A DNA stretch of 64,000 nucleotides from a phage. Within the stretch, counting starts at the first letter, position 1; the number at the start of each line of letters is the position of its first letter. Of the stretch, positions 2,319 to 30,921 are shown piece by piece. The stretch is from the sequence record PZ379176.1. One strand, given 5' to 3'. Under the pieces are notes generated by a model. It ran no database searches, was not told where the DNA came from, and saw only the letters and a program-made list of their open reading frames with translations. The position numbers and the translations under genes are program-made.

Positions 2319-3191
2319 ATGTCTAAAGTAGCGATTAACCACTTGAACAAAGCAAACGAAAGCCTTTCCTCTTTAGGCTTAACCGTTGGTAGTCCTGATG
2401 CGTGGATGGAAAACGAAAGTGCACGTAAAGGATTCAAAAACTCTGTAATGCTGGCTTGCTTGATCATTAACTCTACTGCGAACGCTTTACAGTGTGAAGA
2501 TGAAAGCACGTTCAAAGAGAACGGTTTTACCGATATGCAGGACGCTATTAATTGCTACATTCAAGCAAATTTAGATAGCTGGAATCAGAAGGATTGGCCT
2601 GAGTCATGCCGCGATGTGAAAGCTGAATTATCCCGCTTGTCTGTCATGGTTGAAGCATGGAATAAGAAAAACAAGAAACAGCCAATCAAGCCTACCGTTG
2701 CAAGTAAGATTATGAAGTCTGTTAATCTGGCAAGTTATGCACTGGTTGCAGCGATCGGTGTTAGTGCACTGGTCACATCTCTTTCTGATAAAGCTATCGC
2801 TAGTTCTACTCCTGCAACTGATGCCGCTAGTGTCTTCTCTAGTTCCATCAATAAGGGTTGGATGATTTGCAACGGTGCGGATAGTGATGGAAGTACTATT
2901 GTATTAAAAATGAAGTTTAGCAACGTAACTAATGATGGCGTTCTCTTTCAGTCTAAGACACTAGACAATCAGCCTAACAATGATCTAGTTCTCAAGCGCA
3001 CCGATAGTGACTCGGATATGGTTACATTTGGCACTGTACAACGTTACGAAGACGTTAAAGCTGTAACCAATCTAGTGAGTTATGGCCCGATCAATGAGTC
3101 GATGATTGCTACCACTGTTTACAATAACGCTAATAACGCTGTTTATACCGTTCACGTTAGTTTAGCCAACTGTATTAAGGCTAGTAAGTAA
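2319..3191 (+). CDS. hypothetical early protein with one internal hydrophobic helix
   Basis: ORF track; ATG preceded by AAGGAA; hydrophobic stretch LASYALVAAIGVSALVTSL. Confidence 0.6.
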   Translation: MSKVAINHLNKANESLSSLGLTVGSPDAWMENESARKGFKNSVMLACLIINSTANALQCEDESTFKENGFTDMQDAINCYIQANLDSWNQKDWPESCRDVKAELSRLSVMVEAWNKKNKKQPIKPTVASKIMKSVNLASYALVAAIGVSALVTSLSDKAIASSTPATDAASVFSSSINKGWMICNGADSDGSTIVLKMKFSNVTNDGVLFQSKTLDNQPNNDLVLKRTDSDSDMVTFGTVQRYEDVKAVTNLVSYGPINESMIATTVYNNANNAVYTVHVSLANCIKASK

Positions 3192-7888: not shown

Positions 7889-8332
7889 GTGGCTAAATCT
7901 AAAATCAGCATGAAGGGCGGGCGTTGTTTTGCTATCTCTGAACTAGAGAAAGAGAAACCGAAGGCAACTAATCACGTTAGTAAGCGTAGTTTAAAACGCC
8001 GTGCTGCAAAGGCTGAGGCTGAATCCCATGTTCCTTCCAGTGTGGCAAAACGTGTAGGCCATCGTGTCCATCGTGCTGATGCGTTGTTGTTAGCTGATCA
8101 TAAACGTTCTTTGTTACAGAGCGGGGGCGCTAAAACAGAAGAAGAGAAGAAGTTAGAAATCTTCTGTAATGGTCGCACCCGTGGTAAACAGAAGTTTAAG
8201 GGTAGCACGAAAGACCCTCAGGCATTCCCTAAGACAAGCCAGTGTGCACCTGATGTTTTCTACGCAGATAGTAAACACAAGTGGGGCGTTGAGAAATACA
8301 TTGACCCCATCAAAGAGGCAAGGGTTAAGTAG
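7889..8332 (+). CDS. hypothetical basic protein (147 aa)
   Basis: ORF track; Lys/Arg-rich; GTG start. Confidence 0.45.
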   Translation: MAKSKISMKGGRCFAISELEKEKPKATNHVSKRSLKRRAAKAEAESHVPSSVAKRVGHRVHRADALLLADHKRSLLQSGGAKTEEEKKLEIFCNGRTRGKQKFKGSTKDPQAFPKTSQCAPDVFYADSKHKWGVEKYIDPIKEARVK

Positions 8333-8413: not shown

Positions 8414-8435
8414 GCCGCCTTTGGGCGGCTTTTTG
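8414..8435 (+). terminator. rho-independent terminator
   Basis: GCCGCC-TTTG-GGCGGC then TTTTT. Confidence 0.6.
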
Positions 8436-8442
8436 CGTTACC

Positions 8443-8466
8443 GCCTCCTTAATTGGAGGCTTTTTT
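8443..8466 (+). terminator. rho-independent terminator (second of tandem pair)
   Basis: GCCTCC-ttaatt-GGAGGC then TTTTTT. Confidence 0.6.
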
Positions 8467-8492
8467 GTATCTATTATATAGGAAACCATGAA

Positions 8493-9305
8493 ATGAAAGC
8501 ATTTGCATTGTCAGCTATTCTAGTTTTATCTGCCATTAGTGCCCCATCCTTTGCTCATTCTGACAAATGCTCACACTCTAAACAGTGTGAAGTCCAGCAG
8601 GGGCCGAAAGGTGATAAAGGAGAACAGGGTATTCAAGGCGAACAAGGTCCGAAAGGTGACAAGGGTGATCGCGGAGAGCAGGGCTTAAAAGGTGATACTG
8701 GATCGGCTGGCATCAATGGTAAAGATGGCATCAATGGTAAAGATGGCATTGATGGTAAAGATGGCATTGATGGTAAAGATGGCATCAATGGTAAAGATGG
8801 CATCAATGGTAAAGATGGCATTGATGGTAAAGATGGCATTGATGGTAAAGATGGCGCTCAAGGTGAAAAAGGTGATTCTGGTGCAGATGGTAAGAAAGGC
8901 GAAACTGGCCTAACTGGTGCAGCAGGTTTGAATGGCGTTGACGGATTAAATGGCAAAAATGGTAAAGATGCAGATATGTCTGCCGTTAATGCTAACGCCA
9001 AATCTATCAAAGCTCTGGAACAATCCACCAACAAACGTTTTGCTTCTTTGCAAAAACAAGTAGACCGTAACCGTGATCATGCCTCTGCTGGTATTTCTGG
9101 CGTGGCTGCAATGGCTAACATCCCGCAAGTAAGTCAAGGATCTGCTTTCTCTGTTGGTGCTGGGGTAGGTGCTTACGATGGTGAATCTGCTCTTGCTATT
9201 GGTGTTAGTGCTCGTTTCAATGAAAACGTAGTAACTAAAGCATCAGTGGCAATGACTTCAGAGAGTGACGCTGTTCTGGGCGCTGGTGTAAGTTACGAGT
9301 GGTAA
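8493..9305 (+). CDS. secreted collagen-like repeat protein with YadA-like C-terminal anchor
   Basis: Signal-like N-terminus MKAFALSAILVLSAISAPSFA; long Gly-X-Y tract (GPKGDKGEQG...GINGKDGIDGKDG...); C-terminus ends GAGVSYEW, resembling trimeric-autotransporter anchors. Confidence 0.7.
   Translation: MKAFALSAILVLSAISAPSFAHSDKCSHSKQCEVQQGPKGDKGEQGIQGEQGPKGDKGDRGEQGLKGDTGSAGINGKDGINGKDGIDGKDGIDGKDGINGKDGINGKDGIDGKDGIDGKDGAQGEKGDSGADGKKGETGLTGAAGLNGVDGLNGKNGKDADMSAVNANAKSIKALEQSTNKRFASLQKQVDRNRDHASAGISGVAAMANIPQVSQGSAFSVGAGVGAYDGESALAIGVSARFNENVVTKASVAMTSESDAVLGAGVSYEW
8709..8852 (+). repeat. eight tandem 18-nt repeats (GGCAT[C/T][A/G]ATGGTAAAGAT) inside the collagen-like gene
   Basis: Direct reading: units alternate ATCAAT and ATTGAT in pairs, encoding GINGKD/GIDGKD. 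Confidence 0.9.
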
Positions 9306-12455: not shown

Positions 12456-12703
12456 AAAACTTCCAAGCTGCACCAATAACTAAAGTGATTGCAGTTAATG
12501 ATGTGATGATGGCTGTTCCTCTGAACACTCGTTATATTGCAATTGACAAGATGGGATATGTATGGGCTTGGAAGATCAAGCCTAGTTATAACGCACTGTT
12601 TGATGAGTTTGTTTGTACTGGTACTTACAGTCCTACATTCTTGGGTTTGTTTAGTGAGTTTGATGGTCAGTATAAAATCATCACACTCCCTGCTTGTGCT
12701 TGA
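12452..12703 (+). CDS. small hypothetical protein (possible divergent family member)
   Basis: ORF track; ATGA overlap. Confidence 0.45.
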   Translation: MKNFQAAPITKVIAVNDVMMAVPLNTRYIAIDKMGYVWAWKIKPSYNALFDEFVCTGTYSPTFLGLFSEFDGQYKIITLPACA

Positions 12704-12710
12704 GGTTATT

Positions 12711-12875
12711 ATGTTCAAGTGGTTTAAACGTTTCTTCCATCTCCATGATTGGGAGACAATAAAAGAAGTTCGTTTACACATATATAATGAGATTGGTCAA
12801 ATAGAAGACACAGGTACTCGTTATATACTTCGATGTAAAACATGTGGTCATATCACCAAGCGAGATATGATCTAA
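12711..12875 (+). CDS. hypothetical small protein (54 aa) with C-terminal CxxC
   Basis: ATG at 12711 after GAGG; track ORF 12537 starts in an overlapped frame. Confidence 0.35.
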   Translation: MFKWFKRFFHLHDWETIKEVRLHIYNEIGQIEDTGTRYILRCKTCGHITKRDMI

Positions 12876-12883
12876 ATAATTCT

Positions 12884-12959
12884 GCGCTCTTAGCTCAATG
12901 GATAGAGCAGTAGCCTTCTAAGCTATTGGTTACAGGTTCGAGTCCTGTAGGGCGCACCA
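12884..12959 (+). tRNA. tRNA-Arg (anticodon UCU), CCA encoded
   Basis: Manual cloverleaf: acceptor GCGCTCT/AGGGCGC, D-arm GCTC/GAGC, anticodon loop CTTCTAA, T-arm ACAGG-TTCGAGT-CCTGT, discriminator A + CCA. Confidence 0.85.
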
Positions 12960-13053
12960 CATTTAGGGCTAGTATGGGTGCGGCACCAGAGTTAGTGTAT
13001 CCCTGTTGAGGCAAGTGCTTTTATAACAGTGGGAATTACTTTCTTAGTGAGCT

Positions 13054-13080
13054 TCTGGTTCGATTCCAGATAGTCCACCA
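13054..13080 (+). other. tRNA-like T-arm plus 3-prime acceptor-like sequence without a foldable 5-prime half
   Basis: TCTGG-TTCGATT-CCAGA then TAGTCCACCA; no matching acceptor, D or anticodon arm found upstream. Confidence 0.25.
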
Positions 13081-13099
13081 AATCTAATAGGAGGTAATT

Positions 13100-13399
13100 A
13101 TGAGTTGGGGTGGTGTAATATCCTTAATCTGTATCTTCCTTGTCTGCATAGCCCTTACAGGCTGCGTACAGAGCCGTCCTGATGGATGGTGTGCAGTAGC
13201 AGTGGAAGGTGTTTGTGTTTCTCGCTGGTATAAGGGTGAGAAGATTCCTTCTGGTGAAATTGATATGCGATGGAACGGAGCAACCTGTTCTAATGCTAAC
13301 CCTTCTATCAACGAAGAGAAGTCTACGCCAGACAATGTTGTGATTGATACAGCGTTGTGGTGTGGTGGCTCTGTAACAACAACCGGTAAGGAGTGGTGA
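13100..13399 (+). CDS. predicted lipoprotein
   Basis: SD AGGAGG; signal peptide ending in lipobox-like LTGC (MSWGGVISLICIFLVCIALTGCVQS). Confidence 0.6.
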   Translation: MSWGGVISLICIFLVCIALTGCVQSRPDGWCAVAVEGVCVSRWYKGEKIPSGEIDMRWNGATCSNANPSINEEKSTPDNVVIDTALWCGGSVTTTGKEW

Positions 13400-13400
13400 T

Positions 13401-14238: not shown

Positions 14239-14728
14239 TGACTGAAGAATTTTTAAAGTGGTTTGGTGATACCTTCAAAGAGTATCTATTCTCTCCAGAA
14301 GACTTTGAAGAACTGAAAACCTACACTTGGTTGGCTTGGAGAGATAGCCGACGAGAGATGAATAAGTAATATCGTGAAGGATTCTTACGAGAGTCCTTTG
14401 AGATAGGACTTCAGATCTCCTATCAAACTAACATTCATGTAACTAGCCCATAAGGGCGTTACCCTTTAATAACCCAGCCCACTAAGGGGGCGGGAGTTTA
14501 GTGCTGGATTAGCATAACGCTTATTCCTACAAAGGCAACCGATTGTTAGGTCTTACATGCAATATTAATTAATAGGATAAGGGAGGATTCGTCCCCTCCC
14601 CTATTCATAAACTATTAGGAGAGTACATTAGCTGATTAGCTGTGGAAGGTAGGCCGATATCTACAGCGTGGCCCAGAGCTAGTGTACTCCCCAATAACTT
14701 TAGGGTAAATGTGGAACAACCTTTTAAT

Positions 14729-14874
14729 TACAGGTATAGCTTATGGGACTCAGTAATGCAGAGTCTACGGTAAAGCAGTCGCCCGTGGTCGAATGACCGT
14801 ATGCCCATTGGATGCATTCCTTTGGTGATGGCTAGGGAGTCCGAGCGTAGGTTCGAATCCTACACCTGTAACCA
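14729..14874 (+). tRNA. tRNA-like element with canonical T-arm and ACCA end but about 70 nt of extra internal sequence
   Basis: T-arm GTAGG-TTCGAAT-CCTAC (14847-14863), 3-prime ACCTGTA+A+CCA; only complementary 5-prime strand TACAGGT is at 14729-14735; anticodon not resolved. Confidence 0.35.
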
Positions 14875-29055: not shown

Positions 29056-29606
29056 AGAAAAAGAAGAAAGTGTTTGCATTCGATATCGAGAGTAATGCAC
29101 TGTACGATGACATAACTAAAGTATGGTGTATTTATATCTTTGATGTTGAAACTGGTGAAAGGTGGGGCTATCGGCCTCACCAAATTGAAGATGGGATTCG
29201 TAAACTTACAGAAGCAGATGTACTAGTGGGTCATAATATTATTGACTTCGACTTACCTGCTCTGAAAAAGATGTATCCTTCTTTGATTAAATATAATTTT
29301 AACGTCTTTGACACTTTATGTCTTAGTCGATATCTTAAACCTGACCGTATTGGTGACAGTCCTGAGTATCCGAAAGGCGACCCTAGACGTGGCCCAAGAG
29401 GTCATGGTTTGAAGCAATGGGGTGAGTTCTTAGAGGAACTTAAAGGTGACTACGGTGAGCAAGAGGAAGCATGGGATGCTTTCACTGAAGATATGTTTAC
29501 TTATTGTGAACAGGACGTTAACTTAACTGTTAAGGTTTATCTTTTCTTGTGTGAACTCACGGGATTTGACCCTTACGACCCACCTTCATTATATTGGAAA
29601 ATGTAA
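29049..29606 (+). CDS. DNA polymerase 3-prime to 5-prime exonuclease domain (T7 gp5-like N-terminal part) as separate ORF
   Basis: [10 protein letters not shown] and YRPHQ...[17 protein letters not shown] parallel the T7 gp5 N-terminus; GTG start overlaps primase-helicase stop. Confidence 0.8.
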
Positions 29607-29607
29607 A

Positions 29608-30921
29608 ATGATTGTTATCCCGATTAACCAAATTGAAGATAAGGTTGCTCAACAACCTGATATCACTGTTGGTCGTCACTTCATTGAACAATTGATTAAC
29701 AACAACTTGATTCCAGATGGTATCTGTCCCATCATTACTGGTGGGGCTGTTCGTGATGCTGTCCTTAATAACATAGCTCCACATGACATTGATATCTTTA
29801 TTGTCAGAGGACAAACACCAAGAACTCAAAACACTTTCATCCCAACTGATCGTTGGCAAGAGCTTGGACGGGAGATTGAAAGTAATGTGAAGGAATGGCT
29901 AGAGTCACAAGATATTGAATATGCATCACTTCTTGCTGAAGCTACAAACGAATCCTATGCTGGGGGTTCTCAATTAACATTCACTGATATTATTGAGTTT
30001 CAGTGGAATGGGGTTCGTATCCAATTCATGTTTAATTATCCTACTTCTATTGAAGAGGTATTGGATAATTTTCCTATGATGTGCCGTGGTGCGATGACTC
30101 TTGACAACTTATTCATGACTTCTCACGGATATTTGGCTATGACTTCCCCTTGTCCAGTGGTTGTCTATAGTCGTGAAATCAGGTATGTTCACAAGAAGTG
30201 GCCTAACTCACAAGTGTTGAGATTTTCCTCTCCAGCAGTTGCGCATCAATACATGGCCCAAACTCGATATCTTCCCACACCTCAGCCAGTTAGTCATCTA
30301 GTCAATGGATTAGGTCAGGTTTCTCTTATTGAAGATACAACAAGTGCTCTATATTGTGTTAACCAAGACATGAGTCGATTCTTTGGAATCCCTTATGAAG
30401 AGATTCAGATTATGTCTAGTCTTCACGGTTCTGGTCAGATTCATGCGTATTGGTCTGAGGGGTTGACAAATTTAACGACTAACACGGGTGGTGATCTGCT
30501 TGGTCGAGAAGAGGAACCTAACCGACACAATGCAATTGAAGGGGTGTTTGTAGCCCCTGCAATGCGTCGAGCACAAGAGTCACGAAGAGAAAGCCCTACT
30601 CGTAGAACATCTTTTGAAGAAGCTCTTGGTATTACAAGTGATTCTATGGAGCGATGGATGGCTAGACCCTCTCGTGGTCGACCAAACGGCTTAACTGTTA
30701 GCGCACGTCAGTTCTCTGGTCAGGGTTTCGCTGTTGGTGATATCAACGCCCCTTCTCGTGTTATCTGGACTGATGAAGGTATGGAACAAGATTTGGGAGA
30801 TAGTCTCGCTGATCGCTTTATTGCTAACAACCCTGAAGTATTAGAACCTCAAACCCGTACAGTTCGGTTTGCCGATGAAGCGGGTCGTGGAATCTCTTTT
30901 GACATGGAAACAAATAACTAA
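29608..30921 (+). CDS. pol-beta superfamily nucleotidyltransferase (CCA-adding / poly(A) polymerase head-domain-like)
   Basis: ITGGAVRDAVL...HDIDIFIV matches GG-x-VRD and D-x-D head motifs. Confidence 0.55.
   Translation: MIVIPINQIEDKVAQQPDITVGRHFIEQLINNNLIPDGICPIITGGAVRDAVLNNIAPHDIDIFIVRGQTPRTQNTFIPTDRWQELGREIESNVKEWLESQDIEYASLLAEATNESYAGGSQLTFTDIIEFQWNGVRIQFMFNYPTSIEEVLDNFPMMCRGAMTLDNLFMTSHGYLAMTSPCPVVVYSREIRYVHKKWPNSQVLRFSSPAVAHQYMAQTRYLPTPQPVSHLVNGLGQVSLIEDTTSALYCVNQDMSRFFGIPYEEIQIMSSLHGSGQIHAYWSEGLTNLTTNTGGDLLGREEEPNRHNAIEGVFVAPAMRRAQESRRESPTRRTSFEEALGITSDSMERWMARPSRGRPNGLTVSARQFSGQGFAVGDINAPSRVIWTDEGMEQDLGDSLADRFIANNPEVLEPQTRTVRFADEAGRGISFDMETNN

Follow-up and report, generated by a model that had tools for sequence, protein, structure and literature searches.

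Small phage RNAs with tRNA-like features have been described in several systems. The C4 RNAs of P1 and P7 and the CI RNA of P4 carry tRNA-like paired ends and a CCA that direct processing by RNase P, and they work as antisense RNAs on nearby targets of the phage. In T4, the stable RNAs RNAC (species 1, 119 nt) and RNAD (species 2, 139 nt) are located directly after the tRNA-Arg(UCU) gene of the tRNA cluster, and their function is unassigned (PMC3014915, PMC9697503). Another type of molecule is the tmRNA of mycobacteriophage DS6A, which Hudson et al. list as "TLD only"; according to these authors, a molecule of this kind is a strong inhibitor of tmRNA whether or not it can be charged, perhaps because it titrates SmpB (PMC4131195). 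Inhibition of endogenous tmRNA by the DS6A form in E. coli is also stated in a 2025 update (PMC11915505). Neither a regex search of positions 25 to 60.6 kb of DS6A nor a blast search with an approximate tmRNA query found the TLD-only gene, and all comparisons with DS6A made here follow the literature description. The predicted RNA element analysed in this work is closest to T4 RNAC/RNAD by layout and to the TLD-only tmRNA by architecture; by sequence, it is in neither family.

The window (the whole stretch of DNA analysed, 64,000 nt, sequence record PZ379176.1) comes from a Kuravirus, a phiEco32-like podovirus, and 701 of its bases (12700-13400) are 100% identical to Shigella phage ShigP1. Directly downstream of a tRNA-Arg gene there is a 115-nt element that, as judged from its sequence, is very probably a complete, selected tRNA-like RNA gene. 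The parts of this element and its neighbours are the following:

12884..12959, + strand: tRNA-Arg(TCT) with encoded CCA, upstream neighbour in the same transcription unit (ARAGORN; Rfam RF00005, 72.4 bits)
12960..12965, + strand: 6-nt spacer CATTTA, presumed RNase P leader, not kept in phages with the other tRNA-Arg allele
12966..13080, + strand: whole 115-nt tRNA-like RNA gene, from G1 to CCA
12966..12971, + strand: 5' strand of the acceptor stem, GGGCUA; G3 (12968) is in the G3:U70 wobble and G7 (12972) is unpaired
12972..12988, + strand: D-region analogue GUAUGGGUGCGGCACCA, with GG doublets and the polymorphic site G15A inside
12989..13045, + strand: irregular rod of 57 nt formed by RNA positions 24-80, with the tetraloop AAGU as its cap, in the place of the anticodon arm
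13046..13053, + strand: 8-nt linker AGUGAGCU before the T stem, with a GAGC motif common to the relative on contig L009
13054..13070, + strand: T arm, UCUGG-UUCGAUU-CCAGA
13071..13080, + strand: 3' strand of the acceptor stem, UAGUCC, followed by A73 and the encoded CCA (U70 = 13074; A73 = 13077; CCA = 13078-13080)
13081..13399, + strand: AGGAGG ribosome-binding site and gene for a 99-aa putative lipoprotein (ATG 13100), outside the RNA and marking the 3' limit of conservation

The element can be written as GGGCUAG UAUGGGUGCGGCACCA (57-nt rod) AGUGAGCU UCUGG-UUCGAUU-CCAGA UAGUCC A CCA. A preliminary description of the region had placed the end of tRNA-Arg at 12959 and a T arm (TCTGG-TTCGATT-CCAGA) at 13054-13070, followed by TAGTCC-A-CCA at 13071-13080 (...TAGTCCACCA tail). 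The first of these agrees with the ARAGORN call (12884-12959) and the second is exact in the sequence. However, the same description held that no upstream sequence could serve as acceptor partner, while GGGCTA (12966-12971) pairs with TAGTCC (13071-13076) in a stem of six base pairs (G-C, G-C, G.U, C-G, U-A, and A-U) that RNAfold forms without any constraint. Since 7.7% of random 56-nt stretches of the window contain such a 6-nt partner, its presence alone is weak evidence. The full pattern of the element has 0.00 expected chance occurrences in the window and this, together with the conservation from G1 to CCA and the 7-bp GGGCUAG...CUAGUCCACCA ends found in other phages, makes the acceptor stem solid.

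The end of the element (G1-C72, G2-C71, G3:U70, A73, and CCA) is the identity set of tRNA-Ala and tmRNA. A G3-U70 pair is enough by itself to mark an RNA for alanyl-tRNA synthetase (AlaRS), and the element conforms to this identity rule at the sequence level, through G3:U70 and A73 (PMC7373986). The T arm and CCA are canonical, whereas the acceptor/T stack has 11 bp (6+5) instead of the canonical 12, position 66 being absent relative to the L009 RNA. The resemblance to tRNA-Ala comprises the G1-G2-G3:U70 acceptor, A73, CCA, and the UUCGAUU T loop, and phage tRNA-Ala genes in arrays likewise start with GGGC and end with GUCCACCA. The element differs from tRNA-Ala in that it lacks an anticodon stem-loop, has only a rudimentary D arm and six acceptor pairs, is 115 nt long, and is rejected by ARAGORN and Rfam. 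No + strand ORF of at least 25 codons is present inside it.

ARAGORN was run on the element with introns of 0-3000 nt (-i), relaxed scores (-ps), mitochondrial models (-mt), and in tmRNA mode (-m). No tRNA was predicted with introns and relaxed thresholds, and the Rfam tRNA model (RF00005) gave no match at E ≤ 10, in line with the earlier view that this is not a standard tRNA. The runs with -i, -ps, and -mt returned only chimeras built on the neighbouring tRNA-Arg, and a split or intron-containing decoding tRNA, one of the possibilities raised in the preliminary description, was rejected. Similarly, there was no match at E ≤ 10 to the Rfam tmRNA models (RF00023, RF04321, and relatives) and no call by ARAGORN -m. 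In a manual reading of the 115 nt, no tmRNA tag frame with resume codon and pseudoknots was found, the candidate frames entering the T arm or coding for few residues. The sole Rfam match near the element was to YrlA (RF02553); it scored 14.1 bits, the gathering score being 69, and lay mostly over tRNA-Arg. YrlA also has a tRNA-like module, but its ends form a Ro-binding stem and not an acceptor end.

In the genome records examined no feature is annotated under the element, and it is absent from the RNA family library Rfam. The YF01 and SU10 records were annotated with ARAGORN and tRNAscan-SE; the corresponding papers include tRNA scans only, and that of YF01 gives a single tRNA. Since there is no annotated feature and both ARAGORN and Rfam miss the element, phage tRNA-like genes of this type are under-counted.

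When the T arm is enforced, the element folds into the 6-bp acceptor stem, a short D region, the rod formed by positions 24-80 with its AAGU cap, the 8-nt linker, and the T arm. This tRNA-like fold has an energy of -32.3 kcal/mol versus -37.9 kcal/mol for the minimum free energy (MFE) structure, a gap of 5.6 kcal/mol; the latter retains the acceptor stem and disrupts the T arm. In the variant of the element present in phage EP335, both structures are about equal in energy. Three foldings of the D region lie within 3.6 kcal/mol of one another: a 4-bp hairpin (12-15/19-22), a 3-bp D arm (10-12/21-23), and a pairing of 17-22 with 83-88 that resembles tmRNA helix 2. A 7-nt anticodon loop is absent from every low-energy fold, so that the lack of an anticodon arm, already remarked on in the preliminary description, stands. 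The long rod found in its place implies that the element is unable to read codons.

The element is present in about 30 Gordonclarkvirinae genomes with 97.5-100% identity, distributed over three genera (Kuravirus, Suseptimavirus, and Nieuwekanaalvirus) and including the cultured E. coli phages SU10, Bas90, Bas91, and YF01. Seven versions with differing neighbours were aligned. In Bas91, YF01, and TH42 the upstream tRNA-Arg is a quite different allele followed by a different spacer, and in SR02, UKE3, and TH42 the downstream lipoprotein gene is replaced by other genes. The identity begins at G1 or within one base of it (both spacer types have A at position -1) and stops precisely at CCA. The element itself is 97.4-99.1% identical, whereas flanks of 120-150 nt are only 47-82% identical where the neighbouring allele or gene differs; where the neighbouring sequence is the same, these flanks are 96-100% identical. 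In EP335, the element shows three differences in 115 nt while the flanking coding sequences are 67% and 74% identical (26-33% divergence); thus, three differences are observed versus 30-38 expected (P ≤ 2e-11). Four sites vary across the seven versions, all by transitions that spare the proposed fold: G15A is in the D region, A48G in the apical loop of the rod, G24A changes G.U to A-U, and A73G (at RNA position 73) changes U-A to U.G. These sites are too few to be a proof of the fold, and they occur in mixed combinations across the versions.

The majority of kuraviruses lack the element. In MN03, ES17, KBNP1711, and WFI101126, the tRNA runs straight to the ribosome-binding site, and the MN03 junction equals the window minus 121 nt between two CACCA repeats, which are the 3' ends of tRNA-Arg and of the element. 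This 121-nt indel is consistent with recombination between the 3' ends of tRNAs, which would have either removed or introduced these bases. The clean presence or absence, with most kuraviruses devoid of the element, indicates that it is a discrete, dispensable cassette, and its high identity could partly stem from recent spread via recombination.

In comparison with T4 RNAC/RNAD, the element likewise comes right after a tRNA-Arg(UCU) gene, in what is predicted to be the transcription unit of this tRNA, and RNAC also ends with a T arm and an acceptor-like strand. However, RNAC and RNAD do not have an alanine-type acceptor and RNAD lacks a T arm. Homology to T4 rnaC/rnaD was considered and rejected, since a MAFFT alignment shows scattered identities only. 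In both systems, a homing or HNH endonuclease gene abuts tRNA-Arg in some genomes: in Bas91 and YF01 (L018 1-124 and L019 1-123), it overlaps the start of the divergent tRNA-Arg(TCT) allele, which is the arrangement of segB beside tRNA-Arg in T4.

The TLD-only tmRNAs considered are that of DS6A and one detected in this work on the viral contig L166. They share with the element G3:U70, A73, and CCA, a canonical T arm, their location in phage genomes, the lack of a tag frame and of an anticodon arm, and, in the predicted fold, a single long helix that leaves the junction. On the other hand, the element contains neither the GGNUUCGAC nor the GGAC motif, its pair 4:69 is C-G instead of G-C, its stack has 11 bp instead of 12, it is 115 nt long compared to 65-82 nt, and it gives no Rfam tmRNA match, versus the 23.8-26.8 bits of the L166 RNA. 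Its architecture is compatible with a TLD-only form, although the tmRNA-like arrangement (model C, -28.7 kcal/mol) is worse than the D-hairpin model (-32.3 kcal/mol) and the conserved TLD motifs are absent. In a manual comparison, the D region agrees at only 7 of 10 positions with UGGAUUCGAC, the D-loop of E. coli tmRNA.

Relatives were searched for with a pattern in which both acceptor strands and the T loop were fixed and a 7-bp geometry was required, and which therefore leaves the 6-bp element of the window outside. It matched RNAs of 105-134 nt on three IMG/VR and five metagenome contigs, with ends GGGCUAG...CUAGUCC-A-CCA. Same-strand tRNA genes are present on seven of these eight contigs, and in five the match is inside a tRNA array. 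No match to the 7-bp acceptor/T-loop pattern was obtained in 185,579 bacterial and archaeal genomes and, as far as this sequence pattern is concerned, the RNAs are restricted to phages. No copies of the kuravirus type, with a 6-bp acceptor, were found in IMG/VR and the JGI metagenomes. The relatives on L009, L010, and L015 have a 7+5 bp acceptor/T stack. The G3:U70 pair common to the relatives outside kuraviruses is partly an ascertainment effect, because the acceptor sequence was fixed by the search.

Blast searches with the 3' ends of these RNAs, in which the 5' strands were not imposed, led to shorter, unannotated versions in cultured phages, each of which completes a 7-bp stem with G3:U70 and C4-G69:

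TM7 phage DolZOral124, L021 265-330: 66 nt, with the same GGGCUAG/CUAGUCC stem
Microbacterium phage Franklin22, L022 242-332: 91 nt, between tRNA-Asn and tRNA-Gln
Mycobacterium phage Whirlwind, L023 260-333: tRNA-sized, with a truncated anticodon arm
Roseobacter phage DSS3P8, L024 268-329: 62 nt, with no anticodon arm

Contig L009 is distantly phiEco32-like; it has genes for a ligase, an amidoligase, and an amidotransferase in the same order as at window positions 19979-22930, and their products are 26-45% identical at the amino acid level. Its 105-nt RNA has the same ends as the element (fixed by the search) and GGCA/GAGC motifs flanking the core, and its interior has diverged. The T stem covaries, with GCGGG/CCCGU in L009 and UCUGG/CCAGA in the element. 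This hints that the tRNA-like top, rather than the rod, might be the conserved functional end, always bearing in mind that the acceptor sequence was fixed by the search.

In a less biased scan, 80 loci were fetched via the ligase protein and searched for T-arm-plus-CCA modules not called as tRNAs. One of them, L166, is a distant phiEco32-like viral contig (ligase 39% identical) with a tRNA-Arg(TCT) at 8032-8108. At 2630-2711 (- strand), it contains an 82-nt RNA, GGGGAUG-GAAAGGUUUCGAC-(helix)-GGAC-AUCAG-UUCGACU-CUGAU-CAUCUCC-ACCA, which scores 23.8 and 26.8 bits with Rfam tmRNA models, both below threshold. By its predicted features, it is a textbook tmRNA TLD-only gene with no coding part. Taken together, the element and the L166 gene indicate that alanine-type, anticodon-less tRNA mimics recur in this group of phages.

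A further set consists of "double" tRNA-like RNAs of 110-122 nt, in which an outer alanine-type acceptor and T arm surround an inner T arm:

L010 7523-7637, - strand
L015 221-337, + strand
L014 1515-1627, - strand
L011 7109-7224, - strand
L092 5864-5985, - strand
L140

The inner part comprises a T arm, an acceptor 3' strand, usually ACCA, a loop of 3-5 nt, and a matching GGG... 5' strand; this order predicts an alanine minihelix in circularly permuted form. G1-C72, G2-C71, and G3:U70 of the inner part are invariant in all six RNAs, and its pairs 4-7 covary. The L010, L011, L014, and L015 contigs have same-strand tRNA genes, and ARAGORN did not call a tmRNA at these four loci.

Other viral contigs carry over-long tRNA genes. 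For instance, L093 2161-2266 (+ strand) is a tRNA-Ala(UGC) with an insert of about 30 nt in the anticodon loop, and L008 11715-11827 (- strand) and L010 6006-6136 and 7646-7792 (both - strand) are 113-147-nt genes with non-alanine acceptors that score above the Rfam tRNA threshold (36-45 bits). These genes may have short introns or giant variable arms. A mini-tmRNA with a 10-codon tag frame, suggested by 120-nt IMG/VR sequences (L065, L071, and L040), was discarded, since ARAGORN identified them as the acceptor portions of permuted tmRNAs that are otherwise ordinary and have normal tags.

The best explanation for the whole, to which we give somewhat less than even confidence, is that the element is the gene for a non-decoding mimic of the top half of tRNA-Ala/tmRNA that is excised by tRNA-processing enzymes. 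It would be co-transcribed with tRNA-Arg and small early genes. By analogy with established tRNA biology, RNase P would release its 5' end at G1 and 3' trimming would halt at the encoded CCA; the suggestion in the preliminary description of a substrate for tRNA-end-processing enzymes is plausible for the 115-nt element. The mature product would be a small, stable, non-decoding RNA that keeps the upper half of a tRNA, that is, the acceptor stem, the T arm, and a GG-bearing D region. On the basis of its identity set and of precedent, AlaRS may recognise and perhaps charge it, and the element could compete for factors that bind the top half of tRNA-Ala or tmRNA (SmpB, EF-Tu, RNase P, and the CCA enzyme, among others), in the way suggested for DS6A. 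A function as an alanine-type or TLD-like mimic is possible and is put forward only tentatively; the existence of over-long tRNA-like genes with non-alanine acceptors, one of them in the same window, speaks against this reading.

Among the alternatives, a trans-acting regulatory RNA, in which the 57-nt rod and loops would be the active part and the tRNA-like ends a scaffold for processing and stability, is unlikely but survives best. The entire rod, and not only the ends, is nearly invariant among kuraviruses, and the non-alanine tRNA-like RNA at 14729-14874 of the window, together with the non-alanine over-long genes, would suggest a general chassis. However, the element is no more complementary to the remaining sequence of the 64-kb window than chance would give (14 ten-mers versus about 13 expected, and none of at least 12 nt), so that, in contrast to C4 and CI, no antisense target was found within the window. 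Nor did blastn, which addresses sequence similarity rather than short antisense pairing, give a match in E. coli genomes, and the likely orthologue on L009 retains the ends and not the rod sequence.

A decoy for a host anti-phage factor that targets tRNA upper halves or 3' ends, instead of AlaRS or SmpB, is rather improbable. To our knowledge, no defence partner of the element has been described. The element is an accessory, present-or-absent cassette, as is typical of counter-defence genes, it is restricted to phages, and its phage has a weakly CCA-enzyme-like nucleotidyltransferase. Moreover, some defence proteins contain SmpB-like domains for which binding to tmRNA or tRNA-like RNA is predicted (PMC11090510). 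Since there is no mimic of an anticodon loop, a decoy for anticodon nucleases is excluded.

Two other readings are very improbable. In the first one, the fold would only direct an RNase P or RNase E cut of the early polycistronic transcript, for instance at the 5' end of the lipoprotein mRNA. The position of the element between small early genes, 20 nt before the ribosome-binding site and ATG, and the similar layout in L009 agree with such punctuation. However, the adjoining tRNA-Arg already supplies a site of this kind, in phages devoid of the element the same gene lies 20 nt past the tRNA, and a cleavage signal needs neither 115 nearly invariant bases nor G3:U70. In the second one, equally improbable, the element would be a functionless relic or hitch-hiker, a tRNA-Ala pseudogene with a scrambled anticodon arm that has spread recently by recombination. 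The loss of position 66, with its 11-bp stack, the absence from most relatives, and the indel bounded by CACCA repeats would be expected from a relic, and the mixed combinations of the four variable sites fit recombination or recurrent mutation. Against this stand the three differences in EP335 where 30-38 are expected, the sharp stop of conservation at both RNA ends, and the retention in three genera with different neighbours. The orphan minihelix or tRNA remnant of the preliminary description does not hold either, as the element has its own acceptor stem and stays 97-99% identical while its flanks are replaced or fall to 47-82%.

Finally, a split, permuted, or intron-interrupted decoding tRNA is hardly tenable: although over-long tRNA genes with anticodon-loop inserts occur, such as the L093 tRNA-Ala(UGC) with its 30-nt insert, the ARAGORN runs with introns up to 3000 nt and relaxed thresholds yield only the tRNA-Arg chimeras, Rfam gives no tRNA, and there is no 7-nt anticodon loop.

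Returning to the alanine-type mimic, a broader and more speculative proposal is that many unrelated phages might encode non-decoding, alanine-accepting top-half mimics that capture or redirect AlaRS, SmpB, or EF-Tu. The proposed class spans the kuravirus 115-mer, the short forms in phage isolates, and the 110-122-nt "double" RNAs. If this is true, these mimics would control ribosome rescue or tRNA-sensing defence during infection, and they would be widespread phage RNA effectors acting by aminoacyl-acceptor mimicry and not yet included in RNA family libraries. The element is a tractable case of small tRNA-like RNAs beside phage tRNA genes, since it is present in cultured phages and there are natural relatives without exactly these 121 bases, and the G3:U70 alanine mark provides a biochemical handle. 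Should it be charged, or bound by SmpB or AlaRS, phages would deploy acceptor-end mimics, in connection with the single earlier report of a TLD-only form, that of DS6A.

The preliminary description also mentioned a CCA-enzyme-like nucleotidyltransferase. The ORF does exist (29551-30921, + strand, 456 aa) and is assigned to the PHROG "nucleotidyltransferase" (phrog_12715), while its likeness to CCA enzymes is weakly backed: the Pfam PolyA_pol head domain (PF01743) is sub-threshold (18.7 bits versus a cut-off of 23), and an 86%-identical homologue bears one database name, "classII CCA-adding enzyme-like". NCBIfam gave no match and a PDB sequence search only a chance-level one (VP7, E = 0.66). 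A homologue is recorded in phage XT73 as well, and the match of this phage to the tRNA region is split and covers only 74% of the query, as in the phages devoid of the element; a specific link between the nucleotidyltransferase and the element is thus not supported.

A further candidate for an unannotated tRNA-like RNA, 146 nt long, is located at 14729-14874 (+ strand) of the window, in a 534-nt gap before a "D5-like regulator" gene. Its sequence, UACAGGU ... GUAGG-UUCGAAU-CCUAC ACCUGUA A CCA, contains a perfect 7-bp acceptor stem of non-alanine type. Unconstrained RNAfold forms the T arm and five of the seven acceptor pairs, the folded 144 nt beginning 2 nt inside the stem. ARAGORN missed this candidate, and so did Rfam, which detected only the T arm (14.8 bits). 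Among the matches listed, the module is present only in the kuraviruses ShigP1, KM01, and 1-6bf and in Klebsiella phage GADU21 (95.4%). In the same gap, the non-coding sequence at about 14466-14695 is 75-84% similar to N4-like/G7C-like phages (PhAPEC5, Gamaleyavirus, KP8, pSb-1, and G7C), which suggests a regulatory or RNA element common to unrelated podoviruses. Elsewhere in the window, an ORF of 294 aa (8421-9305, + strand) combines collagen triple-helix repeats (E = 9e-22) with a YadA-like membrane anchor at the C-terminus (E = 2.6e-19), a predicted adhesin-type architecture that is unexpected in a lytic phage.
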